Part shown: positions 415-33,118 of the stretch, piece by piece | Position numbering within the stretch: position 1 is the stretch's first letter | How the letters are laid out: every line of letters begins with the position of its first letter | Assembly (NCBI GenBank): GCA_046350615.1 | Contig: JAXMAA010000002.1 | Location: 277,204 to 341,203, forward strand | Direction: 5' to 3' | Origin: Candidatus Saccharimonadales bacterium | GTDB lineage: Bacteria > Patescibacteriota > Saccharimonadia > Saccharimonadales > UBA7683 | Length of the DNA: 64,000 nt | The notes under the pieces: model-generated | Told to the model about the DNA's origin: nothing | The model's database searches: none | Seen by the model: the letters and a program-made list of their open reading frames with translations, nothing else | Program-made: the position numbers and the translations under genes

Positions 415-804
415 ATGGATAAATACCTTGAAGAGCTCAATGAACGCCTGCACGGCGAGACCGAAAAAGTATATAAGCAACAGCTCAAAAACTATGATGA
501 GTTTATCCGCTCACTCATTACGACCAATAAGATCTTAACCAGACACTTTTACCTGATCGTGCCGTACACTGCTACCAGTAAGACTGACTTTGAGTTGGTA
601 CAAGAACAGCTCAACCTAAAGCTGGATATTGTAGCTAAAGGCATGACCAGACTTGGCATGCACACCAAGGAGCTCAGTAGCCTTGAAGTACTCGATTTGT
701 TCTATAGCTTCTACAATCCGGTTCAAGCTAAGGTGCAGCCATTAACCGAACAAGCGTTGCGCCTCATACATACAGCGCTCGTAGAGAGAGGAGACGAAGT
801 ATGA
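415..804 (+). pseudogene. VirB4/TraE-like conjugation ATPase, fragment 2 of 4
   Basis: Same frame as fragment 1 (IDMDKYLEELNERL...); ends TGA 802-804 overlapping ATG 801 in another frame that is open from 732, so a -1 frame change or a split gene. Confidence 0.55.
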
Positions 805-1301
805 ACTCACCGCTTGCTACCTTAAAAGAACGTAAAATCGCCCGACAAGAAAAACAAAAAGAACTAAAGTTAAGTTTTGGCGAACAAGACGCCGTTGATG
901 TGCTCAGTTACGCCGGACTTGAAGAAAATACGGACTATCTCTGTATAGATGGCGTGTATATTCGTACTCTCTACATCTCTGGCTACCCATTTGTCGCTAA
1001 CTCCGGCTGGATGGACAGCCTGATTAACTTCAATCACGACACAGATATTAGTTACCATTTGCATGAAGTGAACGCCCTCCATGCACTGCCAAAACTTCAC
1101 CGCAAGATTACTGAACTTGAATCAACTAAACGAGCCATGATGCGTGCTGGCAAGATTGTTGGTAGTGAGATTACTGATCCACTTGAATCGGCGATTGAGC
1201 TACGAGATAAGATCCAGCGTGGCCAGGAAAAACTGTTCCAAATGTCGATCTATATCGCTATCCGTGCAGAGAGTCTAGAGGAGCTTAATAAAACGACATA
1301 G
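801..1301 (+). pseudogene. VirB4/TraE-like conjugation ATPase, fragment 3 of 4 (middle domain)
   Basis: IDGVYIRTLYISGYPFVANSGWMDSL... resembles the VirB4 middle domain; terminated by in-frame TAG 1299-1301, and the same frame continues into fragment 4. Confidence 0.6.
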
Positions 1302-1316
1302 CTCCTTGAAGCCACT

Positions 1317-2534
1317 ATGTCAGCCAGGTTGTTTTACTCCAAAGTTGCTCGTTACCAGCAACTTGAAGCATTGCAGTCTATCTTGCCACGCGGCGAAGAC
1401 CAGCTAGCGCAGAAACGAAACCTAGACAGCAGCTCAGCGGCGTTAACGTTCCCATTCATGAGCTCAGAACTCGTCCAAGAAACCGGCATTTTGTATGGCG
1501 TGAATAAGTCCAACAACTCACTGGTTATCTTAGATCGGTTTGGGCTGCATAACGCTAACTCCATTGTCTTTGCTCAGTCGGGCTCGGGTAAAAGCTACAC
1601 GACAAAAGTAGAAATCCTGCGCCAGCTCATGCAAGGTACTAAAGTGCTGGTCATCGATCCAGAACGAGAGTATAAGCGACTCAGTGAAACAGTTGGCGGC
1701 ACGTACATTAAGCTGTCTGCTAAGAGTAAAGAGAAGATTAACCCGTTTGATCTTGCCACAACCTTCCATACCAAGTCTGATCTAGCTGAGCACGTCCAAG
1801 ACCTAACGGCCGTAATTGACCTGATGGCTGAGGGTCTAGATAAACGCGAGAAGGCTGCCGTAGATAAAGCCATTCTTAAAGTCTACAAGCAGGCCAAGAA
1901 AGAACAGCCTTTGCTTGAAGACCTCTACGCCGAATTGCATAAGCTTGGTCAACTGCAGCTATGTGAGCGGCTCGAGAAGTATATTACGGGCTCAAGCTCG
2001 GAGATCTTTAACTCACACACCAACATAAAGTTAGAAAACCGCTTGGTGATATTCGACATCAAGGACATGCCGGCAAATCTACGACCGATCATGATGCTGA
2101 TCATCTCCAATTTCATTCAGAACCAAGTCAAAGCAAAGCCTGAGAAACGAATGCTCGTCATCGACGAAGGTTGGTTGCTGCTGCAACACGAACAAAGCGC
2201 CCGCTTCATTGCCGGCCTGGTTCGCAGGGCTCGAAAGTATTACCTAGGTGTATCGTTCATCTCGCAACAAGCCGATGACTTCCTCAAGAGTGACTACGGT
2301 CGCGCTATTGCCTCACAATCTGCGCTGCGTATTCTCATGCGCCAAGACACGACAACTATTAAGACAGTCGTCTCAGAATTTAACTTGTCCGAGTATGAGC
2401 AACAATTCTTACTGACCTGTGAACGTGGTGACGCACTCATCATTGCTGACCAAAACCATGTAGCCGTCAAGGTGGTAGCTAGCGATAAAGAGCACCCGCT
2501 CATCACGACCGATCCAACGGAGCTCTACGCATGA
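1317..2534 (+). pseudogene. VirB4/TraE-like conjugation ATPase, fragment 4 of 4 (complete ATPase domain)
   Basis: Walker A AQSGSGKSYTTK, Walker B RMLVIDEGW, conserved FISQQ...; 405 aa. The four fragments sum to about 763 aa, the size of a single VirB4. Confidence 0.8.
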
Positions 2535-3007
2535 ATCTAGGCCTGCTGACTTTTGGTGCCGTCACCGGCGGGAACCTCAAGAAGCAGGTCGCTATTGTCT
2601 TTGCCACGATGGTTATTGTAGTCGCACTACCATTTGCTGCCGTCTTTGCTATGGGCGAGAGTGTCGTGACCTTTCTGTCTGGTGTGCCAAGCTTAGAGGC
2701 TGCCGAGAACGAAGGTTTTTACATGGGTGGCCCCGTTGCAGGTGATACCTATGAGTGGGGCAACTGCACCTATTGGGCATTTGCGATGCGCCTGATGGCG
2801 GGCTATCCTATTCCGACAAGCTGGGGCAATGCTAACACCTGGGACGATAGAGCTCGCCGTGATGGCTATGTGGTAGATCACTCACCGGAAGTTGGAGCAG
2901 TATTTCAAAGTGATGCTGGACAGTGGGGTCATGTAGCATATGTGTCAAAAGTGAATAGCCAGAACGGTCAATGGAGAATCTCAGAGATGAACTTTAATTG
3001 GACTTAA
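2531..3007 (+). CDS. Membrane-anchored CHAP-domain peptidoglycan hydrolase (VirB1-analogue of Gram-positive T4SS); possible 3' frameshift
   Basis: N-terminal TM helix; CHAP catalytic Cys in WGNCTYWAF, His in WGHVAYV, then ISEMN. 4-nt overlap with upstream ATPase. Another frame continues 3003-3116 with a plausible CHAP C-terminus (LNIVSKRTFSPEAAGSYNFIH...). Confidence 0.75.
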   Translation: MNLGLLTFGAVTGGNLKKQVAIVFATMVIVVALPFAAVFAMGESVVTFLSGVPSLEAAENEGFYMGGPVAGDTYEWGNCTYWAFAMRLMAGYPIPTSWGNANTWDDRARRDGYVVDHSPEVGAVFQSDAGQWGHVAYVSKVNSQNGQWRISEMNFNWT

Positions 3008-3085
3008 TATTGTCAGTAAACGAACGTTTAGTCCTGAAGCAGCTGGGTCGTATAACTTCATTCATAACAAGATAGGAGCAAGTTT

Positions 3086-3454
3086 GTGGACACCACAGCC
3101 TATCTCACTACCATAATTGCATTACGCCGTGGCATTTCGCCATCCATATTGCTGATCTGCTTTATGGTGTACTGGCTGACGAAGCTAGTAGTAGCAACTG
3201 TTAATCGCCTGTACTTACATAAGAGGCAAATGGTATGGCTTGAACTAACGCCACCTGCTGGACTCGTCAAAACACCCGAGTCTACAGCCCAACTATTCTC
3301 GATAGTTCATGGGCTACGATCAGCCAGGTCACTTAAGGAACAGTTGTTAAATCGAACACCCGTTATGAGCCTAGAAATTGTTTCGACAAAACATGAGGGT
3401 ATCCGTTATTTGATACAGATTGAAGTCAGAATGCCAATACCCTGCAAAAGATAA
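3086..3454 (+). pseudogene. VirD4/TraG-like type IV coupling ATPase, fragment 1 of 3 (membrane N-terminus)
   Basis: GTG start after AGGAG; TM segment ISPSILLICFMVYWLTKLVVA; ends at TAA 3452-3454 in the same frame as fragment 2. The alternate frame 3424-3492 reads SQNANTLQKIIAAYLYPGKNKDN. Confidence 0.55.
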
Positions 3455-4330
3455 TTGCTGCATACCTATACCCGGGCAAAAACAAAGATAATTGAGCGCA
3501 CCTTGCACGCGCCTGATTTTGTGAGCGAGTTTACTCAGAATCATCACTTTGTATTGCCGCTGGCAACAAGTAAAGCGTTTGAGCAACATGATCCGCTGTC
3601 ATACATCACGGCCGCCATGACTAAACTTGAAAATGGCGAGAGTCTATCGATGCAACTGATTATCCAACCAATAAAGTCCAAAGAGGCAAGTAGGTTGTCG
3701 CGCAGGATTCTAGGCAATGAAGATATCTTGAAGCGAGTATCCCGTGGCAAGCTGTCGCCATTCAATAAGGCTGGAGAACTATTTGCTGGGGCAGTACTAG
3801 CAACCACCGAAACTATTGGAGATGTATATAACGGATCAACTGCCAGCTACTACCAAGGTAAATCTGCAAAAGATGCCACATTCCAATCCCAGGTGCAAAA
3901 ACGGCAACGACCTGCACGAACATTGAGTGCCTTTGAACTCGAGCTCATGGAGTCGATGCACCAAAAAGTCTCCCAGGCCTTATTTCAAGTTGACTTGCGG
4001 CTAATGGCAAGTAGCCCTAACGCTAAGGAACATCTCGCGACCCTCCGATCCGCGCTCGATGGCTATTCAGTCCCACAATACCAAGCATTAAGAGCCAAGA
4101 AGCGACTACCCGTTATTCAAAAGTATCGAACACATCTTGCGAGTTTGCGACTACCAAGCTTATTTACGAAACAGTCACTTATTCTTTCTGCCGGTGAGGT
4201 ATCGAGCCTATTTCATTTTCCGGCTAGTCATATTAGCAAAACCGACAACCTAGTGACGTCGCTCAGTAGAACGCTCCCAGCGCCAGTATCAGCTCAAGTC
4301 TGGCCAGCCGCTCTCTATTTTGATCGGTGA
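3455..4330 (+). pseudogene. VirD4/TraG-like type IV coupling ATPase, fragment 2 of 3
   Basis: Same frame as fragment 1; no motif of its own; overlaps fragment 3 by 11 nt in a different frame that is open from 4257. Confidence 0.5.
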
Positions 4331-5669
4331 GAATAATCACCATGATGTTACAACTCCGATTGGCCTAACTGAAGCTGAGCGGCAACGACATATGTATATT
4401 GTTGGTGGCACCGGTAATGGTAAGACGACCATGTTACTGTATGCAATCTTGCAAGATATTAAAAATGGTGAGGGCTTAGCCGTTATTGATCCGCACGGTG
4501 ATCTCGCTGAAGCAATCCTGCACCATGTTCCCAAAGATCGCATAGATGATGTTATTTATCTCAACCCAGACGATCTGACCTATCCAATCGGCGTGAATCT
4601 ACTGGAACTTACCCCAGGACTTAAGGGTGATGATCTGCTCAGAGAAAAAGACCTCATCACTGAATCGACTATCTCAGTACTACGAAAGATATTCTCGGAA
4701 GATGATTCAGGCGGCCACCGTATTGAGTACGTACTTAGAAACACCATCCAAACAGCACTAACACTGGATAATCCTAATTTGTTCACCATCTTCCGACTTC
4801 TCAACGATAACAAGTATCGTCGAGAGATAGTTAAAACACTTGATGATGAAGACTTACGTAATTTCTGGAAGAACGAGCTTGGTAAAGCCGGTGAGTTCCA
4901 AAAGGTTAAGATGGTTGCTGGTATTACCGCTAAGATTGGTCGGTTTCTGTTTTCTGGCTCCGCCAAACGAATCCTTGAACAAGACAAGTCCACCATAGAT
5001 TTTGGAGACATCTTGGATTCAGGCAAGATCCTGATTTGCAACTTCTCAAAAGGTGCACTCGGCGAAGATACCTCATCACTCTTCGGAACCACTATACTTG
5101 CAAAACTCCAGGTAGCTTCGTTGAGACGAGCCCGACTCAAACAGGCTGATCGTCTACCGTTCTATCTCTACGTTGATGAGTTTCAGAACTTTGCGACTAT
5201 GAGCTTTGTACAGATGCTCAGTGAAGCGCGAAAGTATAAGTTGTTCCTTATCATGGCCGAGCAGTCCACTAGCCAACAAGATCAACAGCGACTTGTAGAT
5301 ATTATTTTAGCTAACGTCGGTACCGTTATTTGTTTCCGCTCTGGTAGCCCGGCCGATGAGCGTTATGTACTACCATTATTTTATCCGTACATTGAGCAAG
5401 GTGAAATTTCCAACTTGCCAGCTTACAACTTCTATATGCGCATAGCAGCCGTCACTGCCCAGGAACCATTTTCTGGTCAGACATTGCTGCTTAATGAGGC
5501 AGATGATGAAACGGTATTCAAAGAAGCTATCCGTTCATCACGAGAGAAGTACGCCAAGAAAGTCGATAAGGAAAAGACTAAACCCGTTTTGACGACAAAA
5601 ACAAATGCGAGCACAAAAAAGCGCACAATAACTCGCAGCGCACGGGATCGGGACAAAAAACCAAGCTAG
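4320..5669 (+). pseudogene. VirD4/TraG-like type IV coupling ATPase, fragment 3 of 3 (NTPase domain)
   Basis: Walker A VGGTGNGKTT, Walker B FYLYVDEFQNF, AEQSTSQ; basic C-terminal tail. The three fragments total about 860 aa. Confidence 0.75.
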
Positions 5670-5824
5670 AGATAAGAAGCCAAATTAAACTTTAGCCGTC
5701 GTCCGTAATTAGGGCGTTGGGTATCCATAATCACAATGGCGTATAATAACAATGAGATACGAACAGCATAGATCTCTTGGGCCAGTCCGTCAGATTTAAC
5801 GAAATGTTTTGAAAGGATAGCTAT

Positions 5825-7072
5825 ATGTACACATACTTACTGTTTCAGCTAGTCGGAGTATTATTTACTGTGACAGCATTGCTATTTTTCGCTTATAAAC
5901 TAGGCTTTTTCAAATGGCTTATAGCCTGGATAAAGCGATTGCCGAAGCTTAGTTTAGTGCTGTTACTAATCGGACTTGGCTGCATTCTAATTGGCGGGCA
6001 AAAATATAGTCTGCACTTTGCGATGCCACCATACATCCATTCGATGACCCCAGACAACAAGCCGCCGACGTTACCTATTCCTAGTGCTGTCAGATTCTTA
6101 CTCGATTCTCGCCATTTCGAGCAAGTAAAAGATATTGGGGCCAACCCTGCTTCGGTGCCAGCACCCCTTAATAGATCGACCAGCGAAACGGTTAAAATGC
6201 ACTTAACTACCAAGGAGGTCATTAGTGAAGTTGCTCCTGGAATTTACAATAACTACTGGACATTCGACGGCCAGGTACCAGGGCCAATGCTCCGTGTTCG
6301 TGAGGGTGATACTGTTGAAACGAGCATCACAAATGATCCAAGCAGCCTACATGAGCATAATATAGATTTTCATGCCGCTACTGGGCCTGGTGGCGGTGCG
6401 ACCCTAAGCATGGTTAAACCTGGCGAGACCAAAACATTTACCTGGAAAGCATTGCAGCCGGGGTTATATATTTATCACTGTGCCACCTCTAATGTCAGCG
6501 TTCATAACTCCCACGGACAATACGGCATGATTCTTGTTGAGCCAAAAGAGGGTCTACCAAAAGTAGACAAGGAGTTCTATGTTGTGCAAGGAGAGTTGTA
6601 TACCCAGGGCGGTATTGGCAAGAAGGGCTTGGTGCTATTTGATCCACAGGCTTTACTCGACAACAATCCAACCTATGTAACTTTTAATGGCAAGATTAAT
6701 AGCTCACCAATCATAAAAGTAAAAAAAGGTGAAACGGTACGACTATACGTTGGGAATGGCGGCGTCAGCTTGGTCTCGTCATTCCATATCATTGGTGAGA
6801 TTTTTGATAAAGTCTACGTTGAAGGTGGCCTAGGTGACGGAGCGCTTACGAACAGAAACATTCAAACGACCGCCGTACTACCCGGTGGCTCGACAATAGT
6901 AGAGTTTAAAACAGATGTCCCCGGTAAGTACTTACTCGTTGATCACGCACTCTCTCGAATGAACAAAGGCGCCTGGGCAACCCTAGAAGTTGAAGGTGAC
7001 CCAAGTCCAGATATATTCCGATCCAACTCGCCCGAGGATCACTCCATGCCAGAACACAAATCTATGCATTAG
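5825..7072 (+). CDS. nirK: Copper-containing nitrite reductase (NirK-type two-domain multicopper oxidase) with N-terminal membrane anchor
   Basis: HEHNIDFHAATGPGGGA and YIYHCAT...HNSHGQYGMILVEP (type-1/type-2 Cu ligand pattern), second cupredoxin domain FHIIGEIFDKVY; two N-terminal TM helices; His/Met-rich tail EDHSMPEHKSMH. Confidence 0.8.
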   Translation: MYTYLLFQLVGVLFTVTALLFFAYKLGFFKWLIAWIKRLPKLSLVLLLIGLGCILIGGQKYSLHFAMPPYIHSMTPDNKPPTLPIPSAVRFLLDSRHFEQVKDIGANPASVPAPLNRSTSETVKMHLTTKEVISEVAPGIYNNYWTFDGQVPGPMLRVREGDTVETSITNDPSSLHEHNIDFHAATGPGGGATLSMVKPGETKTFTWKALQPGLYIYHCATSNVSVHNSHGQYGMILVEPKEGLPKVDKEFYVVQGELYTQGGIGKKGLVLFDPQALLDNNPTYVTFNGKINSSPIIKVKKGETVRLYVGNGGVSLVSSFHIIGEIFDKVYVEGGLGDGALTNRNIQTTAVLPGGSTIVEFKTDVPGKYLLVDHALSRMNKGAWATLEVEGDPSPDIFRSNSPEDHSMPEHKSMH

Positions 7073-8718
7073 AAATGCTTACGCAGGTGGGACATACTAT
7101 AGTCCCAGGTAGCATCAGTCTTCTTCTTTGGGTTAAAAATATTATCTGGATCAAAAATATGCTTTGTGTGCACAAAGTAGCCATAAACTTCTGGGCCATA
7201 CATCTTTTTAAGCCATGGCCCTCGACTTAGTCCGTCGTTATGTTCACCACTTAAGCTTCCGCCGTACTGCAACACCAATTCGTTTACTGCCTTCATGACT
7301 GGTTTAATTTTGGCCACTTCTTTGGGGTCTTCAATTTTCATGAGCGGGATAATGTGGAAGTTACCGTCGCCCATGTGACCGGCAATGGTGGCAAGCAGTT
7401 TATATTTTTTGAGAATCTTGCGGAGCTGGGGTAGAAACTTTGGCAATACCTCTGGCGGCACAACTAGGTCATCAATAAATGGAGCAGTGTGTTTGTCTTT
7501 TACTTTTTGGCGGAGCAAGTTGAAGCTCTCTCGTCGCATAATCCAAAACTTACGTGCCTTCTCTTCACTAGCATCTTCTTCGTAGGTTTCATAGCTGTCA
7601 AACGGCCGCAGATCAAGTCGCATAGCATGTACTTTCTCGGAAACTTCTTCAGGTGTATCACCGTTAAATTCAACCAAAAGTACCATCTTAGGAATGCCTC
7701 GAAATAGTTTGAAAAGATCGGGCAGTAGCTCCAGCCCAAGCTTGATTGTTCCGAGCCAGCCCAGAGTATGATGGAAATAATAAAACAGCTTGAAGCTGAG
7801 CATGAGCGTGTAATTATCGAAACCTTCAAACGTAGCCGGTTCATGTTCTCGGACTGTGTTAATTATTTTACCAAGCTGTCTAATATCACGGAGAAATACC
7901 ACCAAGGTTCCAGAATGCTTTGGTGCCGGCACAAGTCGCAGATGAACATCGGTCACAATACCGAGTGTTCCCTGAGAGCCAACAATGAGCTGAGTCATGT
8001 CGAAGATACCCGTCTCACGGTCCCAGACATTCCATAGATGGTAACCTGTAGAATCTTTGCTAACCTGTGGCTTGGCGGCTTTAATTGCATCGTAATGTTC
8101 TTCGAGTAGCTGGTAGACTTTTGTGTATAGCCGTCCTTCGTAATCTTTTTGTGCCATCTTAGCTTTAAGTTGAGCCTTATGCAGTGGCTTTACACTATAT
8201 TCATTGCCATCAGCTAGTATTACGGACAGGGCCGGTACAAACTGTTCGGTCTTGCCATACTGCAATGACTTCTCGCCACCAGAGTTATTAGCAACCATAC
8301 CCCCGAGCGTGCATAGATCTTTGCTGGCTGGATAGCATGGTAGCAGGGCATCTTGCTTGAGTGTTTCTTGCTCGAAATCACGGTAATACACTCCTGGTTG
8401 AACGCGGGCTGAACGCGGGGTAACGGAGTGGATTGTAGTGAAGTGCGGAGTCATATCAAGCACAATCGATTCACCGATTGCACCACCGCTCATATCGGTA
8501 CCAGCTGAACGAACTACAATTGAATGATCACCGTGCTTACCGCCAGCAACCAGGTTAACAACTCGTGAAACATCTGCCGAATCTTTTGGCGCAAGTACCA
8601 ACTGGGGCCGAAGTTCAAACATACTGGCATCATGGCTACAACGCTCCAATGACGCTTGGTCTGTAGAAATATCTCCCAAGAAACCGTCCATTTTGAGTGC
8701 TGTGATTATAGAATCCAT
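7069..8718 (-). CDS. FAD-linked oxidase / dehydrogenase (GlcD / D-lactate dehydrogenase-like, PCMH FAD-binding fold)
   Basis: 549 aa; VVRSAGTDMSGGAIGESIVLDM and GSQGTLGIVT are typical FAD_binding_4 motifs; C-terminal FAD-oxidase domain (HMGDGNFH). Confidence 0.75.
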   Translation of the reverse strand: MDSIITALKMDGFLGDISTDQASLERCSHDASMFELRPQLVLAPKDSADVSRVVNLVAGGKHGDHSIVVRSAGTDMSGGAIGESIVLDMTPHFTTIHSVTPRSARVQPGVYYRDFEQETLKQDALLPCYPASKDLCTLGGMVANNSGGEKSLQYGKTEQFVPALSVILADGNEYSVKPLHKAQLKAKMAQKDYEGRLYTKVYQLLEEHYDAIKAAKPQVSKDSTGYHLWNVWDRETGIFDMTQLIVGSQGTLGIVTDVHLRLVPAPKHSGTLVVFLRDIRQLGKIINTVREHEPATFEGFDNYTLMLSFKLFYYFHHTLGWLGTIKLGLELLPDLFKLFRGIPKMVLLVEFNGDTPEEVSEKVHAMRLDLRPFDSYETYEEDASEEKARKFWIMRRESFNLLRQKVKDKHTAPFIDDLVVPPEVLPKFLPQLRKILKKYKLLATIAGHMGDGNFHIIPLMKIEDPKEVAKIKPVMKAVNELVLQYGGSLSGEHNDGLSRGPWLKKMYGPEVYGYFVHTKHIFDPDNIFNPKKKTDATWDYSMSHLRKHF

Positions 8719-8804
8719 ATACCCTAAGCTTAGTTTGTTAGTAGCCCTTTTTGCAAGACCCCCATGTTGCTTATGTGGTAGTATGAAAATAGATTGGATG
8801 CAAG

Positions 8805-9998
8805 ATGAGTAAACATGAAGTTGTGATTATTGGCGGGGGCTTTGCAGGTGTTAAGGCAGCGCTAGAGTTAGTTGATGATCCGAAAGTTAAAGTAACGCTA
8901 GTCAGCGAACGTCCAGACTTTCGCTATTACCCGACACTCTACCGGACAGCTACCGGTGGACGCAAAATGATTTCAAGTATCCCACTCGTAACTATTTTCG
9001 CTGGTAAATCAATCACTATCCTGCAAGACAGCGTTACTACAATTAACCGCCAAGAGAAGACTATAGCTACTAAAGCTGGGCGGGCAGTAAAATACGACAG
9101 TTTACTGCTCTGTCTTGGGGTGCAAACAAACTACTTTAATATCCCTGGGTTACAAAAGTATTCGTACGGTATTAAAACCATTGAAGATGCCGAGGAGCTA
9201 AAAAACCATCTACACCAACAGTTAATTCAACAATGGCGTCCAGATACCAACTACATCGTTATCGGAGCTGGCCCTACTGGGGTGGAGCTAGCCGGAGCGC
9301 TACAAGCCTATGTGGTGAAGCTTCTGCGTGACCATGGTATCTCAAAACGAAGCGTACACATTGAGCTTGTCGACACTGCTCCTCGTATTCTCCCGCGTAT
9401 GCCAAAGGCTGTATCTCGCCGGGTCGCGAGACGACTTCGAAAGCTCGATATACGAATTCTCACAAACCGCCATGTTGATACACTAGACGAAACGACGCTC
9501 ACTGTTGATGACAGACCCATTCGCAGCCAGACTGTTATCTGGACTGCGGGAGTCACTAACAATTCTTTCTTTAAAACAAACAAATTCCAATTAACTGCAG
9601 GTGGTAAAGTACGAGTTGACCAATATTTACAGGCCGAACCTAGTGTCTACGTGGCCGGAGATAACGCTGATACTCCGTATAGTGGCATGGCTCAAACCGC
9701 ACTTTATGACGGTAAATTTATTGCTAGCAACATTACACGACTAGCACATAGTCAAGATGCTCGATCGTATGTCGCCAAGCGACCGATCTATGTTACGCCA
9801 GTAGGTCGACATTTTGCTGCCGTACAATGGGGTGGACTAAGAATATACGGGGTGGCTGGCTGGGGACTTCGGAAATTAGCAGATTACGTTGCCTATCACG
9901 ATTACCTGCCCTGGCGATTGGCAGCTACACTTTGGCTGGCCGAAAACGACGAGGAGAACACCTGCTCACAGTGTTTAGAGCGCGGCGAGAGCTCGTAG
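8805..9998 (+). CDS. ndh: Type II NADH dehydrogenase (NDH-2) family FAD-dependent oxidoreductase, island copy
   Basis: Two dinucleotide-binding motifs VVIIGGGFAGV and IVIGAGPTGVELAG; GDNADTPYSGMAQTA. Paralogue of 38366-39547. Confidence 0.75.
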   Translation: MSKHEVVIIGGGFAGVKAALELVDDPKVKVTLVSERPDFRYYPTLYRTATGGRKMISSIPLVTIFAGKSITILQDSVTTINRQEKTIATKAGRAVKYDSLLLCLGVQTNYFNIPGLQKYSYGIKTIEDAEELKNHLHQQLIQQWRPDTNYIVIGAGPTGVELAGALQAYVVKLLRDHGISKRSVHIELVDTAPRILPRMPKAVSRRVARRLRKLDIRILTNRHVDTLDETTLTVDDRPIRSQTVIWTAGVTNNSFFKTNKFQLTAGGKVRVDQYLQAEPSVYVAGDNADTPYSGMAQTALYDGKFIASNITRLAHSQDARSYVAKRPIYVTPVGRHFAAVQWGGLRIYGVAGWGLRKLADYVAYHDYLPWRLAATLWLAENDEENTCSQCLERGESS

Positions 9999-10068
9999 CC
10001 TCGCTAAGTGTCGATGGTCAAAATAGCCGCGAGTTTGTCCTATGGCAAGAACGTTGTAAGATGGTCGT

Positions 10069-10512
10069 ATGATTAAAAAAGCTACACATTGGTTCTCGAA
10101 AAACATCATCTTTATCACCTGGCTCATAAGCATCGGCGCTGTTTTTGGTAGCATGGGACTGAGCGAGGTCATGCACCTCATACCATGTGCACTTTGTTGG
10201 TACCAACGAATTTTGATGTTCCCACTTGCGTTCATACTGGGTGTTGGCGTGTATAAAAAAGACAATAACGCTGCATATTACGTACTGCCTCTCAGCATGC
10301 TGGGTATAGTTGTGTCCTTTTACCACTCACTACTTCAATGGGGAATAATTAAAGAAGTTGTGCAGACTTGCTCAATCGATAGCTCGTGCGCCGTTCCGCA
10401 AATTAACTGGTTTGGGTTTATAACTATTCCGTTCATGGCATTCATTATGTTCGTACTCATCACAGGCCTTATGTTGGCTCAAGCGCATATCAATAAGAAG
10501 CTACTCAAGTAA
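10069..10512 (+). CDS. Disulfide bond formation protein, DsbB/BdbC family
   Basis: 147 aa, four TM segments, first periplasmic loop PCALCWYQR (CxxC), second Cys pair in QTCSIDSSC. Confidence 0.7.
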   Translation: MIKKATHWFSKNIIFITWLISIGAVFGSMGLSEVMHLIPCALCWYQRILMFPLAFILGVGVYKKDNNAAYYVLPLSMLGIVVSFYHSLLQWGIIKEVVQTCSIDSSCAVPQINWFGFITIPFMAFIMFVLITGLMLAQAHINKKLLK

Positions 10513-10701
10513 CATTATTCTCCAAGGGGGAGAGGATGTTCAATTGTATATACTTCCTTCCTCTGTCTTCTCATTGTACGGGTGAACCAAAAGCATCAAG
10601 GTAGTACTTTCAGTCTCCACCTTGACACTTTTGGTTGCAGCCCGAATCTCCTTTGCCAGAGAGGCAGAAAGTCCTCTCATGAATTAACAAAGGAGGGTTT
10701 C

Positions 10702-11016
10702 ATGGAAACTCAAGCGCAAGACATAGCAAAATTAAATGATAGGTTCCGAGGGATGTGTTTAGATGTGTTCTATACACCAGGCGTACGTGATGGGATTATG
10801 GATCTTATTGGCCTATCTCAAGCAGTTGAGAATTTCAATAGCTTTAATGAGGATAATGATCCGCATGGAGAACATGATTTTGGATCACTGCGTTTTGAAG
10901 GTAAGAAGATCTTCTGGAAGATTGATTACTATGACCAGGATTTAAAGTTCTGGTGCGATCCACTTGATAGCGCCTGTCGTAGAACGCTAACTATTATGCT
11001 CGCAGACGAGTATTAG
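10702..11016 (+). CDS. DUF3768-family protein (typical of plasmids/ICEs)
   Basis: ATG 10702 preceded by AAGGAGGG; FNSFNEDNDPHGEHDFGSLRFEGKKIFWKIDYYD matches the DUF3768 core as I remember it. The 10582 start in the track has no RBS and a non-conserved extension. Confidence 0.6.
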   Translation: METQAQDIAKLNDRFRGMCLDVFYTPGVRDGIMDLIGLSQAVENFNSFNEDNDPHGEHDFGSLRFEGKKIFWKIDYYDQDLKFWCDPLDSACRRTLTIMLADEY

Positions 11017-11075
11017 TTAGTTGTCCTGAGCATGACGAAAAACTGCTCAAACGCATAACTTGTAACTTAGAGCCT

Positions 11076-11396
11076 CTAGGGCATTACCGCATCTAGTTCT
11101 TCACCGGCGAAGCTTATGATTTCTCCGAAACTCTCATTCTTAGCAAACTTTTGCCATCGTTGAGCACGTTCTGATGTTCCATTGTGTGTGTCCTCACTCA
11201 TAGCATCTCGGGCTTCTTGAGATTCCCACTCTGCAACAGCAAAGTAGCAACCAGGCTCATTGCGCACTTTATGAATATGCGTCCCGGCAGCGCCAGGATA
11301 TTCTTGGAGCACAGTGCTGCTTTCGCGCCAATGATCTATAAACGCCTGTTCATCTTCTGGATTATTGAGTTTTATTTTCCATATATATCGATACAT
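11076..11396 (-). CDS. Antibiotic-biosynthesis-monooxygenase (ABM) domain protein
   Basis: 106 aa ferredoxin-like fold pattern: FIDHWRESSTVLQEYPGAAGTHIHK...YFAVAEWESQEARDAM. Confidence 0.6.
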   Translation of the reverse strand: MYRYIWKIKLNNPEDEQAFIDHWRESSTVLQEYPGAAGTHIHKVRNEPGCYFAVAEWESQEARDAMSEDTHNGTSERAQRWQKFAKNESFGEIISFAGEELDAVMP

Positions 11397-11407: not shown

Positions 11408-11950
11408 TTAATAAAAAGTTACTGGTTTGTTGTTACTATCTACTGTCCGAACTAGCACTTCTGCATATTCTAAGTCGAAACCTGGGAATTCGGGATGCTC
11501 TTTCGGTAGTGTTGGTTTCATTTCGGCTAAGACCTTATCTGCTTCCTCGTGTGTCATTTGGTCGATAGGTTTCTCGATAACCTCATATAAATACTTGCCA
11601 TCTTCGAGCTTACTATAGGCAATCTTGATGGCATATGCCTGTTGCTTGTACCAGTTACTTTTTTCTATGTCGGCAAGGATACCTTTGATATTGTTGAGCA
11701 AATGAGTTGCAACACGCAATTCGGCAGCATCCCAATCTTCATCATCACTACCACCAGCATCTAATTCACCATCATTACGCTGAAACTCTAAGTCAGTAAT
11801 ATCTCCTATAAGCATCTGGGTGTTGAGTTTAAGATCATCAAAGTCAGGTGTTTTAATTGCTGCAAGTTCATCAATTGCCTCAACAGCACCTTTGCTCCTG
11901 GCGATGATATCCTTAACTTCGTGGATGTAGGCTTGCTCTTTTTTATTCAT
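11408..11950 (-). CDS. Hypothetical acidic protein
   Basis: 180-aa ORF tightly packed between neighbours (gaps of 4 and 11 nt); acidic stretch GGSDDEDWD; no motif recognised. Confidence 0.45.
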   Translation of the reverse strand: MNKKEQAYIHEVKDIIARSKGAVEAIDELAAIKTPDFDDLKLNTQMLIGDITDLEFQRNDGELDAGGSDDEDWDAAELRVATHLLNNIKGILADIEKSNWYKQQAYAIKIAYSKLEDGKYLYEVIEKPIDQMTHEEADKVLAEMKPTLPKEHPEFPGFDLEYAEVLVRTVDSNNKPVTFY

Positions 11951-11954: not shown

Positions 11955-12737
11955 TTATCTTATCAATTCCAACGCAGAAGAACCATTGCTTAGAACATTG
12001 TCCAAGCCTATGGCATGCACAACTACGTCATCTATACCCGTCGATTCAAAGACAGACTGTGCGTATTCAAGAAAGGTCTTGGCTTGTCGGTCGCTTGCCA
12101 ACACAAACAATAGTGCTGGGTAATCGCCGTCTGGCCAGCCTTCATCGTCACAGTGCTCAAGAAGCTTATTAAATCGTTTTCGGACTAAGAATGGTTGGCT
12201 ATCATGGTGAAGTTCAACAAAAAACTCGTTGGGTTTAGTGCCGCTTGTTTCTTGGCGGCGTAAGTAGAGATGTGGGCGTGGTAGTGGAAAGTCTGTGTCA
12301 CCAGCTATTTCAGTGGCACTGTAGATATAGAACTCGTCGGGGTAGGCTTGCTTAATGTGGTTGGCTAACTGAAACGTAGTCAGGCAGTGCTGGATAAAAC
12401 TTTCGGTTTTGGCGTTGTACATGGCATGCAGTGCTTTTTTGGATAGGTCAGTGTTTTTGAGTAAGTAGGTGATCCCTTTGGGAGCAATGGTGTACCTAGC
12501 GCCCTTACGGTCTATGCGGTATGAGTTATCGTATTGCTTAGTTAAGTACTTTGACTCAACAAGGTTTTGTAGCATTCGGTTTAAGCTGTTTTTATTAACC
12601 CCACGATATTCTGCCAATAATGACGAAGTTACAAAGCGAAATTTATATACAATCTTTAAAGTATGGAGCTGTTTACTGCTTAACTTTTCCAAAACCTGCT
12701 TCTCTTTCATAGACCGTCCGCACTTTCTTCTTCTCAT
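11955..12737 (-). CDS. Replication-relaxation family (wHTH) protein
   Basis: N-terminal winged-helix pattern LSSKQLHTLKIVYKFRFVTSSLLAEY...LNRMLQNLVESKYLTK resembles PF13814. Start may be the second ATG (12710). Confidence 0.5.
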   Translation of the reverse strand: MRRRKCGRSMKEKQVLEKLSSKQLHTLKIVYKFRFVTSSLLAEYRGVNKNSLNRMLQNLVESKYLTKQYDNSYRIDRKGARYTIAPKGITYLLKNTDLSKKALHAMYNAKTESFIQHCLTTFQLANHIKQAYPDEFYIYSATEIAGDTDFPLPRPHLYLRRQETSGTKPNEFFVELHHDSQPFLVRKRFNKLLEHCDDEGWPDGDYPALLFVLASDRQAKTFLEYAQSVFESTGIDDVVVHAIGLDNVLSNGSSALELIR

Positions 12738-12907: not shown

Positions 12908-13084
12908 ATGTCCAAAGAGGGTATGGTTCAGACACTTCCTAAAGAAACGATTGAGGCACTACGCCTGATCTTGGAACGTGAGCAGTCCAGGCATATCGAA
13001 GATGCCGAGGTGATCGAGATCGGTGAGTCGCTCCTGACCTTTTATGAACTCCTCGGACAACAAAGTGAGCCAAGCGATGAGTAG
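12908..13084 (+). CDS. Small acidic helical protein (58 aa) translationally coupled to the serine recombinase
   Basis: ATG 12908 with AAGGA 8 nt upstream; its stop TAG (13082-13084) overlaps the recombinase ATG (13077) in the sequence ATGAGTAG. Below the 60-aa cut-off of the ORF track. Confidence 0.4.
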   Translation: MSKEGMVQTLPKETIEALRLILEREQSRHIEDAEVIEIGESLLTFYELLGQQSEPSDE

Positions 13085-14567
13085 CGACAATAAAGCCGTT
13101 ATCATAGCCCGGGTGTCGAGTAAGCGCCAAGAGGATGAAGGCTATTCGCTTCCTGCTCAAAAGCGACTACTCAACAGCTATGCCGTCGATAAGGGCTTAA
13201 ATCCACTTAAGAGTTTTGAGATAGCCGAGTCGGCTTCTAAAACTGAGCAACGCCGTATCTTTAAAGAGGCCATGAAGTTTATTGAAGATAACAACGTGAA
13301 GCATTTAATCGTAGAGAAGGTTGATCGACACGTTCGCAACTTACATGACGCAGTTGAAACCAACGATTGGTTAATGGCAGATGAGGCCAAGCGAGTTCAC
13401 TTTGTAAAAGATTCGCTGGTGATGCATAAAAACTCTCGTTCGCAAGAATGGCTCAACTGGGGCATCCGAGTCGTTATGGCCAAAAACTATATCGATAACC
13501 TACGCGAAGAAGCCATGAAAGGCTGGGCTGAAAAACTAGCCCAAGGGTGGCTCCCTGGTGTTCCGCCTCCAGGCTATATGACCGTTACCGAAAATGGTAA
13601 GCGCATTCATAAACCCAATCCTGATACCGCACGGCTTATGAAACGAGTGTTTGATCTGTATCTTGAGCCAAGTCAGTCGATAGCTTCAGTGGCTCAGGAA
13701 ATGGCAAAGATGGGCATCCGCACCCGTAAAGGCCATCCATACTACAAAAGTCAGGTGCAGCGCATTCTTACCAATCCATTTTACATCGGGATTAACCGCC
13801 ATAACGGCAAAGACTACCCAGGCGTACAAGAAACGTTTATCTCTAAGGATGTATTCGATAAGGTGCAAAAGAAGATGCGACGCAAGACGCCAACTAGATA
13901 CCGCAAACATAATCCGGTATTTAAAAACCTTATTCACTGCACGGGATGTGGTGGGCTGGTGACGTGGCAACTCCAAAAAGGTCGCTACTATGGCTCATGC
14001 CAGCGCAAGAGTGATGAGTGTCGTGGTCGCAAGCTCCTCAGAGAGGATACCATCGAAGAAGAAGTAGCACGTATGCTTCAGAACCTCGTAAGCCCATCTC
14101 CCGAAGTTATTGAATGGGTGGCTGAAGCTATGCGCACCAAGCACCACGACACTATTGAGGATAATTCTAAGCTCATAGCGTCTATTGAGGCGCAGTTAGG
14201 TCGCATTAAGCGTATGGATAGTAATCTCTACGACGATAAGCTGGCAGGAGATATAAGCGAGGAACGATACACTCAGAAGCACCAGGAGCTTAACCAGACT
14301 CGTCTTGAGCTTGAAGAGAAGCTTGGCAGCGTTGATAAAACCCTATCTGTGATACTAGACAAGAAACTGGTGCTGCTCGAGCTATCCCAAAAGGCCTCAG
14401 AAATCTATGCCCACAAGACACCAGAGCAGAAACGCACGATAATAACCAAACTTTTCAGGAAACTAGAGTATACCGAAGGTTCCGTATCTGTTATGTACAC
14501 GAATTTTAGCCGAGCAATCGCTCAAAATGTAACATTAACCCGTACTTTATTAGGAGGTACAAAATGA
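13077..14567 (+). CDS. Large serine recombinase (resolvase/invertase N-domain + recombinase domain + zinc ribbon + coiled coil)
   Basis: AVIIARVSSKRQEDEGYSLPAQ (catalytic Ser motif), recombinase domain, CTGCGG...C zinc ribbon, long C-terminal coiled coil. Start placed at 13077 (MSSDNKAVII); the track start 13044 is also possible. Confidence 0.85.
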   Translation: MSSDNKAVIIARVSSKRQEDEGYSLPAQKRLLNSYAVDKGLNPLKSFEIAESASKTEQRRIFKEAMKFIEDNNVKHLIVEKVDRHVRNLHDAVETNDWLMADEAKRVHFVKDSLVMHKNSRSQEWLNWGIRVVMAKNYIDNLREEAMKGWAEKLAQGWLPGVPPPGYMTVTENGKRIHKPNPDTARLMKRVFDLYLEPSQSIASVAQEMAKMGIRTRKGHPYYKSQVQRILTNPFYIGINRHNGKDYPGVQETFISKDVFDKVQKKMRRKTPTRYRKHNPVFKNLIHCTGCGGLVTWQLQKGRYYGSCQRKSDECRGRKLLREDTIEEEVARMLQNLVSPSPEVIEWVAEAMRTKHHDTIEDNSKLIASIEAQLGRIKRMDSNLYDDKLAGDISEERYTQKHQELNQTRLELEEKLGSVDKTLSVILDKKLVLLELSQKASEIYAHKTPEQKRTIITKLFRKLEYTEGSVSVMYTNFSRAIAQNVTLTRTLLGGTK

Positions 14568-14647: not shown

Positions 14648-14721
14648 TGGCTGGGGATGAGGGATTCGAACCCCCGATCCTGGGACCAGAACCCAGTGCC
14701 TTACCGCTTGGCCAATCCCCA
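14648..14721 (-). tRNA. tRNA-Gln (anticodon CTG), CCA encoded
   Basis: Reverse complement TGGGGATTGGCCAAGCGGTAAGGCACTGGGTTCTGGTCCCAGGATCGGGGGTTCGAATCCCTCATCCCCAGCCA. It has a 7-bp acceptor stem, a GTTCGAATC T-loop and anticodon loop TTCTGGT, and is close to E. coli tRNA-Gln. Confidence 0.9.
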
Positions 14722-14889: not shown

Positions 14890-14945
14890 GGCGGTGGAGT
14901 TTGGGGATAGTATCTGCTATACTTATAAATACATTAACAACGTAA

Positions 14946-15065
14946 CAATATAAAGAGTGTGGCGAGAGATCTAGCTCGTTGACCCACCGGCAACCTACGA
15001 TTATTTAGGGTTTTCCTTGGATATCGAAAGGTGCTCCAACTAGCCGCGTGAGCGGAAAGATATTG
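14946..15065 (+). promoter_or_regulatory. S-box / SAM-I-like riboswitch aptamer
   Basis: P1 CAATAT/ATATTG (14946-51 / 15060-65); AAGAG; GTGG...CCAC P2; conserved GGCAACC and AAGGTGC blocks; P4 CCGC-GTGA-GCGG. Downstream gene is a Cys/Met-metabolism PLP enzyme. Confidence 0.65.
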
Positions 15066-15072
15066 TGATTTT

Positions 15073-15106
15073 ATATCCTTTCCGTGTACGCAGAAAGGAT
15101 ATTTTT
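15073..15106 (+). terminator. Riboswitch expression platform: intrinsic terminator that also sequesters the RBS
   Basis: 10-bp stem ATATCCTTTC / GAAAGGATAT with 10-nt loop, followed by TTTTT. The 3' arm contains the AAAGGA Shine-Dalgarno 6 nt before ATG 15107 and resembles the P1 3' strand GAAAGATAT (possible antiterminator). Confidence 0.6.
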
Positions 15107-15442
15107 ATGTCAAACTTTAATACCTGTGAGCATGATCATCAAGATGTAGGTGGCTTTTTAGACGCGGTTGCCGAGGAGGGTGCGGCGCTTCAAATTGCAG
15201 CGGCGCTCGGTTCTGCTGAGCCAGTGCGACTGCAGCGGCGACCGACAATTATCGATTTCGCGCTAGGCAGTATACCATCGCCGCTTAGTCCAGAAACACC
15301 AGAGGGCAACCTTCATCAAACTGCGAAAACATGCGCCCGGGCGATCATCGCCGGCGAATGCACGCAGTATGCTCTTGAGCCGACCGAAAGTCTGGTACAG
15401 TTCACTATTCATAGGCGCCATGAGACCAAGGGTGGGTGCTAG
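15107..15442 (+). CDS. Hypothetical 111-aa protein, first gene under the SAM riboswitch
   Basis: ATG directly after the terminator T-run with embedded SD; MSNFNTCEHDHQDVGG...; no motif recognised. The track start 15065 (GTG) would lie inside the aptamer. Confidence 0.45.
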   Translation: MSNFNTCEHDHQDVGGFLDAVAEEGAALQIAAALGSAEPVRLQRRPTIIDFALGSIPSPLSPETPEGNLHQTAKTCARAIIAGECTQYALEPTESLVQFTIHRRHETKGGC

Positions 15443-15449
15443 GAGGCTT

Positions 15450-16577
15450 ATGTCAGAAACTCTAGTACCAACATTTGATTTGGTTGAAGACCTGAGGATA
15501 GCATTGGGGGCTAAAGATACGTTTGGCAGCGTAGACCTTTATCCGCGTGATGGTACGAAGCAGCTCTGGGAAACGGAGGGTCGCTGCGGTGAGTTAGTGG
15601 GTGTGGATGAAGGAGATCTTATATTGTGCGCAAGTGGCATGGCGGCAATTACGGGAACAATCGGAAGCCTTGTAAAAGCAGGTGATACCTTTGCCATCGC
15701 AGAGCAGACTTACTCGCAGACGCAGATGTATGCAGATAAACTGAGGCAGTTTGGCGTGGATGTTATTCGCTTTGACTCCGGATCTCCTACGGCGGTCGAA
15801 CGACTTATTAGTCGGCGTCGACCTGACCTCATATTTACCGAGACGGTGAGCAATGGCCCTGATATGCCTGTAACAGATATTCGGCACCTAATTTCCGTGT
15901 GTGATGATCAGCAGTACGAGCCGATTATTTTACTTGATAACACGCTTCCACTTTCCACAGGGTTTGACGTTACTCCTCTGCTCAGTGAACGGCAAAATGT
16001 GCTTGTAGTTGAGAGTGCAACAAAATCGTACGCGCTGAACCAGGAGCTTGCAGGGTTGGTCTACGGTAAAAATCGCGCATTACTCAATACCATACGACGG
16101 GTACGGAGAACCGAAGGTTTTGGTCTCAATGTAGCCGCTCTCCAGCGCCTTGATACCGTACTGCCCGCATCGCCAGATGTCTTCCATGCGCGCAATAGGA
16201 GGATATTCGAGGCGAGTGCTTTTATAGCCCAGACATTAGCGCATTCTCAGGGTGCCGGGGAAGCATTCGTTGTAAGCCACCCGGCATTAGACACTCATCC
16301 TAATAATCAATTTGCACGTACTGCCCTCGAGAACGGTTCCGCTCCAGTCTGCTATGTGCAATCACTAGGCCAAGAGGGTGATCAATATCGTATTGCGCAG
16401 TGCTTATGGTCGCATAGTGGTGTCCGCGAACAGGCCGAGCTTGGCCAGAGTTTTGCTTTTGACACGGCACGCATACTGCCAGATAGCAAGGCGCCTGTTG
16501 TGAGAATCGCCGCTGGGGCGAAAGGCGACTATCGGCTCCTGGCAAGCTCCATGGCAGAAGCGCTCAGGTCTCTCTAG
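15450..16577 (+). CDS. Cys/Met-metabolism PLP-dependent enzyme family protein (divergent cystathionine gamma-synthase/lyase-like)
   Basis: AGGAGG at 15441-46 then ATG 15450; SGMAAITG, DNTLPLSTG, ESATKSYALN (PLP-lysine motif S-x-T-K). The track start 15369 lacks an RBS. Confidence 0.65.
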   Translation: MSETLVPTFDLVEDLRIALGAKDTFGSVDLYPRDGTKQLWETEGRCGELVGVDEGDLILCASGMAAITGTIGSLVKAGDTFAIAEQTYSQTQMYADKLRQFGVDVIRFDSGSPTAVERLISRRRPDLIFTETVSNGPDMPVTDIRHLISVCDDQQYEPIILLDNTLPLSTGFDVTPLLSERQNVLVVESATKSYALNQELAGLVYGKNRALLNTIRRVRRTEGFGLNVAALQRLDTVLPASPDVFHARNRRIFEASAFIAQTLAHSQGAGEAFVVSHPALDTHPNNQFARTALENGSAPVCYVQSLGQEGDQYRIAQCLWSHSGVREQAELGQSFAFDTARILPDSKAPVVRIAAGAKGDYRLLASSMAEALRSL

Positions 16578-16599: not shown

Positions 16600-17163
16600 T
16601 TATAGCAATCGAAGATCTTCCAGCCCTTCGGGTAAAAAGCCTTGGGGATGTTTAAAGTTGGTCTCCCATTTGGTTCCTTTTGCGTAGCCAAGATCCTTCA
16701 TCAATTTAGTCGGCGCATTTCTTAGATGGAGTGGTACTTGTGCATCGGGAAAATCCTTTGCGGCTTGCAAAGCGGCGTACATGGCATCTGCCACTTCTCG
16801 AGATTTCTTGCTTTTGGCGAGTGCTACGGCACAATGGAACAGGCTATACTGCCCTTCAGGCAGGCCAATTCGTTCTATCGCTTGAAAAGCGGCAGTTGCG
16901 AGTGCTAGTGCGCCATTGCCGGCTAGGCCAATATCTTCTGAGGCAAAAATGACCATTCGCCGTGCTATAAACTTTGGGTCTTCGCCAGCATCAATCATCC
17001 GCGCCAAGTAATACAGTGTGGCGCTCACATCGGAACCGCGCATACTTTTAATAAAGGCTGAGATGAGATTGTAGTGATATTCGCCGCCTTTGTCATAACC
17101 GAGCAAGCGTTTTTGGGCCGCGGTTTTAACGGTTTCGGGCGTAACTTTTTCAGCAAGCTGCAA
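16600..17163 (-). pseudogene. rarA: Replication-associated recombination protein RarA/MgsA, C-terminal fragment (MgsA_C domain)
   Basis: GGEYHYNLISAFIKSMRGSDVSATLYYLARMIDAGEDPKFIARRMVIFASEDIGLA is the conserved RarA C-domain; out of frame with the N-terminal part. Confidence 0.8.
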
Positions 17164-17771: not shown

Positions 17772-17813
17772 AGTTCTATTGTAACCCGACCACGAAAAAT
17801 CTATACTAGGGCC

Positions 17814-27578: not shown

Positions 27579-27672
27579 GGATTCCCGTCTTCACGGGAAT
27601 GACGGATGTGAGGTTTTGAGACTCAGGTCAAGATGACACAGAAACAGATCGGGGGTTTCGTGATTCGGGTTT
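27579..27672. repeat. Right half of the composite palindromic repeat split by the IS
   Basis: ATTCCCGTCTTCACGGGAATGAC hairpin module, GTGAGGTTTTGAGACTCAGGT (27608-27628) and GTTTCGTGATTCGGGTTT (27655-27672) mirror the left half. Confidence 0.75.
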
Positions 27673-27698
27673 CTAATAATTGATGCTATAGTAATTTT

Positions 27699-33116: not shown

Positions 33117-33118
33117 GG

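Follow-up and report, generated by a model that had tools for sequence, protein, structure and literature searches.

How bacteria of the candidate phyla radiation (CPR) use NirK, type II NADH dehydrogenase (NDH-2), and quinol oxidases without a recognizable respiratory chain or genes for making quinone is a question raised by several genome surveys. The NirK proteins of CPR bacteria, including Parcubacteria, form a distinct clade in genomes that lack a conventional chain and carry an NDH-2-like gene; the path from the donor was described as "by unknown means", the canonical NirK ligands were stated to be conserved, and a cupredoxin was found in the same bins (Danczak et al. 2017, PMC5581439; PMC12931201). 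In Saccharibacteria, ndh and the cyo genes (cytochrome bo3) have been described as a "linear chain" with scavenged quinone (Starr 2018, PMC6031116; Nicolas 2021, PMC8407418), and lateral spread of nirK within the CPR was hypothesized by Jaffe et al. (PMC7304191). The NirK of Thermus scotoductus (TsNirK) is a three-domain enzyme, in which a buried Gln site is fed by a fused cupredoxin and the catalytic Asp is changed to Ser (PMC6400189). Here, we describe a redox cassette encoding NirK, an FAD-linked oxidase, NDH-2, and DsbB in a stretch of 64,000 nt (the window) from Candidatus Saccharimonadales bacterium (Patescibacteriota/CPR; contig JAXMAA010000002.1, positions 277,204-341,203).

The four genes lie side by side in the window as follows.

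5825-7072, plus strand: NirK-type copper nitrite reductase, 415 aa (TIGR02376 and alignment to AniA of Neisseria gonorrhoeae)
7069-8718, minus strand: FAD-linked oxidase/D-2-hydroxyacid (D-lactate-like) dehydrogenase, 549 aa, with FAD_binding_4 and FAD-oxidase_C domains
8805-9998, plus strand: NDH-2, type II NADH dehydrogenase, 397 aa, with a Pyr_redox_2 domain
10069-10512, plus strand: DsbB/BdbC-type disulfide oxidoreductase, 147 aa (PF02600)

The genes of NirK and the FAD-linked oxidase are convergent with a 4-nt overlap, and those of the FAD-linked oxidase and NDH-2 are divergent with a spacer of 86 nt. A first-pass annotation had listed four adjacent redox genes here, and all of them are open reading frames (ORFs) of the proposed families at these coordinates. 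It had also suggested a CPR host, and this is borne out by a protein that is 100% identical to the FAD-linked oxidase and carries the annotation Candidatus Saccharimonadales, and by the chromosome, which shares its synteny with contigs of Saccharibacteria. For one of these, the 713-kb contig L010 (L-numbers denote the loci or contigs of relatives compared with the window), the synteny holds from 17694 onward; a YtxH-like gene, BipA (90% identical), an ABC transporter, DUF2207, a second NDH-2, a PDDEXK nuclease, and RmuC follow one another in both.

The four genes appear to be a conserved Patescibacterial module and not a random mix of cargo. The following arrangements of their homologs were found in related genomes.

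NirK and FAD-linked oxidase, convergent: L006, L015, L022, L032, L035, and L039 (Saccharimonadia, Yonathbacteria, and Minisyncoccia)
NirK, FAD-linked oxidase, and NDH-2: L006 (85, 83, and 72% identical, respectively; among housekeeping genes without a secretion system, with VKOR and DsbA a few kb away)
NusB, RNase III, S16, TrmD, superoxide dismutase (SOD), NDH-2 (minus strand), and FAD-linked oxidase (plus strand): L175, L176, L179, L180, and L181 (five of the five FAD-linked oxidase loci on long Saccharimonadia contigs)
This trmD-side NDH-2/FAD-linked oxidase locus, extended by a complete cyo quinol-oxidase operon: L175 and L180
The trmD-side locus, extended via DsbA to BipA: L179
FAD-linked oxidase, NDH-2, and DsbB in a tight co-directional operon: L177 and L178
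NirK followed directly by DsbB: L036, a Doudnabacteria contig

The native NirK gene of L010 is also located in the trmD-bipA region. Because the NDH-2/FAD-linked oxidase loci and this NirK gene all share that region, it can be regarded as a variable redox locus in Saccharimonadia, and the block in the window appears to be a copy of it that was moved elsewhere and inverted. The first-pass annotation had pictured a mobile, self-contained but incomplete electron-transfer kit; rather than a kit assembled ad hoc on a mobile element, we find a copy of a conserved module, which is native in the trmD-bipA region and sometimes stands beside cyo. The network of linkages among the four genes is new, and its recurrence names the proteins that should be reconstituted together. 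The contents of the trmD-bipA region vary (L175-L181 and L010) and include Ni- or Cu-SOD, NDH-2, FAD-linked oxidase, NirK, the cyo operon, UbiA/CyoE, and DsbA. A gene for a 386-aa protein located 3' of the FAD-linked oxidase gene in L175 was considered as a NirK candidate and rejected, as it showed no similarity.

The four could also be fortuitous neighbors, that is, unrelated accessory genes gathered in a variable region beside a secretion system. The gene order does vary among lineages, and the cassette has a mixed affinity that suggests mosaic assembly, with DsbB closest to the L177/L178-type operon (68%) and the FAD-linked oxidase and NDH-2 closest to the L006/L175 type. However, five pairwise or triple linkages recur over several Patescibacteria classes and the cassette moves as a unit, and we consider chance neighborhood very improbable.

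The extent of the moving unit was delimited by comparison with the independent contig L173. The exchanged cassette spans 5515-10600 and comprises the last ~50 codons of the gene for the type IV coupling protein (T4CP), the intergenic region, the genes of NirK, the FAD-linked oxidase, NDH-2, and DsbB, and ~90 nt more. From ~5515 to the end of the L173 contig at 10600, the two DNAs are 99.7% identical (13 mismatches in 5086 nt). Upstream of ~5515, the genes of the type IV secretion system (T4SS) share about 62-86% DNA identity with L173, and at ~5515, within the last ~50 T4CP codons, the identity rises abruptly from ~85% to ~100%. At the protein level, the identity between the two is nevertheless 94-98% for VirB4 and for the C-terminal portion of T4CP, so most of the DNA differences there are synonymous. 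Another contig, L172, is a mosaic within the block (95.3% identity for NirK and 99.9% for the FAD-linked oxidase). The contrast between cassette and flank, together with this mosaic, indicates that the cassette (~5.1 kb) was exchanged recently by recombination between diverged Saccharibacteria backbones.

The T4CP-NirK junction is common to seven independent assemblies. Three assemblies (L002, L172, and L173) break at window positions ~10581-10631, shortly 3' of DsbB, which suggests a variable right-hand junction. The gene order of the T4SS is kept in ~25 metagenome loci, and none of 80 T4CP-related loci carries any of the four cassette genes; in several related loci, T4CP is directly followed by a relaxase-like, DUF3768, or serine-recombinase gene. 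The mobility of the block, as proposed in the first reading, is thus upheld by the identity jump and by its absence from the 80 related loci. A search for repeats at the cassette borders gave only short matches at chance level and no insertion signature, and a promoter and terminator scan of 5600-11100 gave counts at the level of shuffled sequences. The cassette provides direct evidence that a nirK block is currently being exchanged among Saccharibacteria lineages, which was previously a hypothesis only (PMC7304191).

The assignment of NirK is based on its whole-protein score on the curated equivalog model TIGR02376 (320.3 bits, above the cut-off of 296.3), the check that had been proposed for it. 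It aligns with Neisseria AniA at E=1e-104, with ~55-57% identity in the catalytic core. In this alignment, the type 1 copper (T1Cu) ligands are His178, Cys219, and His227, the type 2 copper (T2Cu) triad is His183, His218, and His374, and the catalytic pair is Asp181 and His321. Across 53 aligned clade members, these His and Cys ligands and the catalytic pair do not vary. The expected copper ligands are all present except at the T1Cu axial position, where Gln232 replaces Met. Gln occupies this position in NirK of the window and all of its 120 best homologs; among loci from named genomes, it defines a 29-sequence Patescibacteria subclade, and Met predominates in the sister Patescibacteria NirK subclade. 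The examined non-CPR NirKs carry an axial Met, with one exception (L084, an unclassified bacterium, with Leu). Other variants at this position are rare: Leu was also found in L035, a Minisyncoccia NirK, and L041 represents a separate origin of the axial Gln inside the Met-type CPR subclade. Because Gln is a known functional variant in TsNirK (PMC6400189), we take Gln232 as a subclass marker that does not exclude the protein from NirK. The loss of T1Cu or T2Cu ligands, named earlier as the sign of a laccase-like protein, was not seen, and NirK of the window is not laccase-like.

The phylogeny called for in the first-pass annotation, which was meant to find a donor lineage, was built as a neighbor-joining tree without bootstrap. 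All 40 NirKs classed as CPR form one clade in it; this label was set by locus number, and a few of the sequences carry non-CPR bin names (e.g., L019). NirK of the window is the sister of L006 within the Saccharibacteria Gln group, and this nesting points to an origin within the phylum. A non-CPR donor of NirK was rejected for the same reason.

Two N-terminal transmembrane (TM) helices had been proposed for NirK, and the two methods used here agree on them: hydropathy places them at residues 5-23 and 39-57, and an AlphaFold2 (AF2) model of the monomer has helices at 3-25 and 40-57. The confidence of the model is moderate (pLDDT 74.9), and the linker at residues 64-83 is modeled with low confidence. 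The loop between the two helices contains five Lys or Arg residues, and by the positive-inside rule, the catalytic domain is predicted to lie outside the cell. The hairpin is followed by a conserved linker (residues 62-117; ~45 residues conserved, LHFAMPP...PPSLP...FERV..DIG). Matches to non-CPR homologs mostly begin at residue ~93-110, and the comparison of homologs restricts the two-TM hairpin and the conserved linker to CPR NirKs. When residues 1-110 were searched alone, 16 matches were obtained, all of them NirK-like proteins or fragments, and no other protein context was found. Two additional histidines, His176 and His230 (codons at ~6350-6352 and ~6512-6514), flank the T1Cu ligands. All 53 aligned NirKs of the Gln clade have both of them; AniA has Pro and Asn there. 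Tyr2, Tyr4, Phe65-Ala66-Met67-Pro68, His72, His176, His230, and Gln232 are characteristic of the Gln clade alone and vary little or not at all within it. The His/Met-rich C-terminal tail noted previously (SPEDHSMPEHKSMH) is present, but homologs have a variable tail or none at all (P0002, which is 85% identical, lacks it), and we rejected it as a conserved copper-handling feature.

These features raise the possibility that the Gln-type hairpin NirK oxidizes scavenged membrane quinol directly, without a cupredoxin or a bc1 complex, by means of its TM hairpin, juxtamembrane linker, and low-potential His2-Cys-Gln T1Cu site, which would make the chain self-sufficient. This reading is consistent with the clade-specific conserved residues listed above, with an N-terminal module found only with NirK, with the lack of any donor gene within +/-10 kb of the annotated CPR NirK loci, and with the remaining three genes all being quinone-reducing; T1Cu sites of laccases are also known to oxidize quinols. 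If it is true, the cassette would be a complete, portable, cytochrome-free anaerobic chain from NADH, D-lactate, and thiols via quinone and NirK to nitrite, the smallest known. Nevertheless, a quinol-dependent NirK is without known precedent. The anchor calls for no explanation of its own, since extracytoplasmic enzymes of monoderm bacteria need a tether anyway. In addition, the linker is a low-confidence part of the model, and other CPR genomes with NirK are reported to encode cupredoxins elsewhere (PMC5581439, PMC12931201). We regard direct quinol oxidation as rather improbable, and the Gln-type clade, with its stellacyanin-like His2-Cys-Gln site and hairpin, is a target for testing an unconventional electron donor.

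The FAD-linked oxidase scored 90.8 bits for FAD_binding_4 and 154.1 bits for FAD-oxidase_C, and its closest solved structures are glycolate oxidase, mouse LDHD, LctD, and D2HGDH. Its GHMGDGNFH and GEHNDG segments align to the active-site motifs HxGDGNxH and GEH of glycolate oxidase (9QGZ). The score on the GlcD model is below the cut-off (209.7 versus 567.9), as is that on the YdiJ model (267 versus 1350), which is matched in the flavoprotein half only (profile positions 18-539 of 1018). The domain scan and hydropathy revealed no Fe-S domain and no TM segment, and the enzyme is predicted to be cytoplasmic.

The best matches of NDH-2 in the PDB are Bacillus subtilis YjlD (3.8e-38) and NDH-2 of Caldalkalibacillus thermarum (3.2e-35), aligned over residues 1-361. 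Both dinucleotide-binding GxGxxG motifs are kept (GGGFAG and GAGPTGVELAG). The C-terminal region aligns to the solved relatives, and the number of predicted TM segments is zero. The cassette enzyme shares 72% identity with the copy in L006 and 58% with those in L175 and L176, and it appears to be a paralog that travels with the FAD-linked oxidase. A second NDH-2 paralog is encoded outside the cassette.

38366-39547, minus strand: second NDH-2 paralog, chromosomal (Pfam)

The two paralogs of the window are 34% identical to each other. The second one is 61% identical to its L010 ortholog, and its synteny is kept; therefore, the genome has two distinct NDH-2 types.

DsbB scored 57 bits on PF02600 and 124.9 on NF002849, just above the cut-off of 124. 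It has four hydrophobic (TM) segments, a C40xxC43 motif, the quinone-site Arg47, and a second pair, C101x5C107. Its closest homologs (68%) sit in the operons of L177 and L178, in which the FAD-linked oxidase, NDH-2, and DsbB genes occur without a T4SS, and a role of DsbB as a T4SS accessory, which is known from some conjugative systems, was rejected on this ground.

NDH-2, FAD-linked 2-hydroxyacid dehydrogenases, and DsbB normally reduce membrane quinone, and none of the four enzymes pumps protons. We propose that the four genes encode a redox-balancing module that is linked to quinone, pumps no protons, and disposes of its electrons on nitrite, a reading to which we give somewhat better than even chances. 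NDH-2 would oxidize NADH at the cytoplasmic face and reduce membrane quinone, as would the FAD-linked D-2-hydroxyacid dehydrogenase, whose substrate, judging from its family, is most likely D-lactate. DsbB would pass the electrons of extracytoplasmic thiols to the same acceptor. The quinone is probably scavenged, as the literature on the CPR suggests. NirK, tethered by its hairpin at the outer face of the membrane, would serve as an oxygen-independent sink that converts nitrite to NO; it is the sole candidate for quinol reoxidation in the block and would take the place that the cyo quinol oxidase has relative to the dehydrogenases in aerobic relatives. Electrons would most probably pass from quinol to NirK through a cupredoxin encoded elsewhere, because cupredoxins are reported in other NirK-bearing CPR genomes (PMC5581439, PMC12931201). 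The benefit would be regeneration of NAD+, oxidation of lactate, and an oxidized quinone pool for disulfide formation under low oxygen. Since the four enzymes are nonpumping, the benefit would be redox balancing and not respiratory energy conservation; without bc1 or NDH-1, nitrite reduction by this route is expected to build no proton-motive force. Even if it is only a redox-balancing sink, the module would explain how fermentative epibionts could use nitrite in low-oxygen habitats.

Several observations weigh against this proposal. Gene linkage is not biochemical coupling, and adjacency of NirK and the FAD-linked oxidase was found in only ~6 of ~38 Patescibacteria NirK loci. The FAD-linked oxidase passes none of the NCBIfam equivalog cut-offs, and no NCBIfam equivalog model passes for NDH-2, either. 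The quinone-site AQxAxQ motif of NDH-2 retains its first Gln and has Tyr instead of the second (AQTALY). No gene for a cupredoxin, cytochrome c or other cytochrome, bc1 complex, quinone synthesis, or DsbA was found in the 64-kb window by Pfam scans of ORFs of at least 120 aa and motif scans of smaller ORFs (ORFs inside longer genes were excluded from the Pfam scans and a few others were skipped, e.g., 15065-15442 and 63219-63842). This agrees with the earlier statement that donor and quinone partners are absent from the window. Nor was a nor gene seen in the window, and NO is toxic. DsbA-like genes are present near the module in L006 and L179. The absence of a donor from 64 kb says little, because NirK-bearing CPR genomes usually have a cupredoxin elsewhere (PMC5581439, PMC12931201).

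The Ni- or Cu-SOD gene immediately upstream in the native loci fits a stress locus equally well. According to this alternative, the genes are co-localized through co-regulation under oxidative or nitrosative stress and do not form an electron-transfer chain: NirK would remove nitrite, or make NO as a signal or a weapon against the host, NDH-2 and the FAD-linked oxidase would reoxidize NADH and lactate with any acceptor, and DsbB would make disulfides. Besides the SOD gene, a stress or detoxification role agrees with published suggestions that nitrite is detoxified on behalf of a partner organism (PMC5581439, PMC12931201) and with the frequent occurrence of solitary NirK (L007 and L009-L012). 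A Crp/FNR-type regulator encoded near the native locus L179 is also in line with it. On the other hand, three of the four proteins belong to families defined by a membrane-quinone acceptor, the linkage to either cyo or NirK points to a common pool with a terminal sink, and NO is more toxic than nitrite (PMC5581439). We consider a stress locus unlikely; it ranks next after the redox-balancing module.

The cassette lies between a T4SS gene cluster and a region with a recombinase gene and a tRNA gene. The features of this area were assigned by Pfam, ARAGORN, and Rfam as follows.

415-5669, plus strand: T4SS backbone with o415, VirB4 (801-2534), a CHAP hydrolase (2531-3007), and the coupling protein T4CP (3086-5669) (Pfam)
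10582-11016, plus strand: DUF3768 (Pfam)
11076-11396, minus strand: ABM (Pfam)
11408-11950, minus strand: protein of unassigned family
11955-12737, minus strand: Replic_Relax/MarR-like protein (weak, 27.6 bits with a cut-off of 25.3)
13044-14567, plus strand: large serine recombinase with Resolvase and Recombinase domains
14648-14721, minus strand: tRNA-Gln(CTG), 80 nt after the recombinase gene (ARAGORN and Rfam)

The block had been placed inside an "island". A relaxase-like gene, a large serine recombinase gene, and tRNA-Gln do follow it, in keeping with that term, but VirB4 and T4CP are disrupted, and the T4SSs of Patescibacteria are usually chromosomal and without a relaxase (PMC12102498). 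The tRNA-Gln gene is a possible right-hand limit of the element; its left end is beyond the window, and a search for an empty site found no sufficiently close genome without the element. VirB4 is interrupted by an in-frame TAG (1299-1301; Lys in L173), and T4CP by an in-frame TAA (3452-3454) and, near 4292, by a frameshift. In L172 and L173, T4CP (859 aa) and VirB4 (573-577 aa) are intact. Identical contigs in Logan begin at window position ~4779. Decay of the secretion or conjugation machinery beside a redox cassette that is still intact would explain these disruptions, as would errors in the assembly.

Some other features of the window were also recorded. The VirB4 and T4CP orthologs are single intact ORFs in L172, L173, L094, and L105. 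The recombination ATPase MgsA/RarA is split on the minus strand at 16600-17834 into overlapping ORFs (AAA domain, 17025-17834; MgsA_C, 16600-17163); the homolog in L017 is a single frame, and the split copy is the third disrupted gene in the window. Just outside the element, beside tRNA-Gln, a SAM (S-box) riboswitch (14945-15066, plus strand; 48.3 bits with a cut-off of 44.4) precedes a gene for a Cys/Met-metabolism pyridoxal phosphate enzyme (15369-16577, plus strand). A second accessory region at ~26484-37058 breaks the synteny with L010 and encodes a Mutator-family transposase, RadC, a ParA-like ATPase, Fic, an N6/N4 DNA methylase, RhuM, and a 968-aa helicase-endonuclease (restriction-modification or defense). 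IS200/Y1-type transposases are encoded at 21532-22161, 48537-48974, and 60739-61356 (one full-length match and two weaker ones). A metal-homeostasis cluster at 47526-52023 contains a Fur-family regulator, a CobW/G3E GTPase (590 aa), and a ZIP transporter.

AniA of N. gonorrhoeae is a lipoprotein and thus also membrane-tethered. This class II two-domain enzyme (1KBV/5TB7) has the same T2Cu triad, T1Cu His2Cys set, Asp/His pair, and SSFH[IV] motif as NirK of the window. It differs in the axial ligand (Met148 versus Gln232) and in its tether, which is a lipid anchor, whereas NirK of the window has a two-TM hairpin and a conserved linker of ~45 residues, and it lacks the His176/His230 pair that is invariant in the clade of the latter. 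TsNirK (6HBE; PMC6400189) shares the His2-Cys-Gln T1Cu site and the His-x4-Gln spacing, and no other described NirK with this site was found. NirK of the window is distant from TsNirK in sequence (E=2.5e-33) and, unlike it, has two domains, keeps the catalytic Asp, and has no fused donor. The large clade of Gln-type, hairpin-anchored, two-domain NirKs appears to be a new recognition.

The T4SS cluster resembles the MPF-FATA-like T4SS of Patescibacteria (PMC12102498) and the integrative and conjugative elements of monoderm bacteria in its VirB4, coupling protein, CHAP hydrolase, TrbL/VirB6-like and PrgI-like proteins, VirB2-like pilin, and conserved order. Unlike those loci, it has on its downstream side a relaxase-like gene as well as a large serine recombinase gene beside a tRNA gene, its VirB4 and T4CP are disrupted, and it bears a metabolic cassette, which is found in none of the 80 related loci. 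The published accounts of CPR NirK (PMC5581439, PMC12931201) describe neither a Gln subclade nor a linkage with the FAD-linked oxidase, NDH-2, and DsbB nor a mobile cassette; what is new is an actual nirK cassette that was transferred recently and lies beside a T4SS/recombinase region. The proposals of host-derived quinone and of an unknown NirK donor are already published for the CPR (PMC6031116, PMC8407418, PMC5581439, PMC12931201). The ndh and cyo chain of Saccharibacteria has the same NDH-2 family, the same "oxidoreductase" beside the cyo operon (L175 and L180), and the same lack of quinone synthesis; in the window, by contrast, the dehydrogenases are linked to NirK and not to a heme-copper oxidase, DsbB is attached, and the set is mobile.

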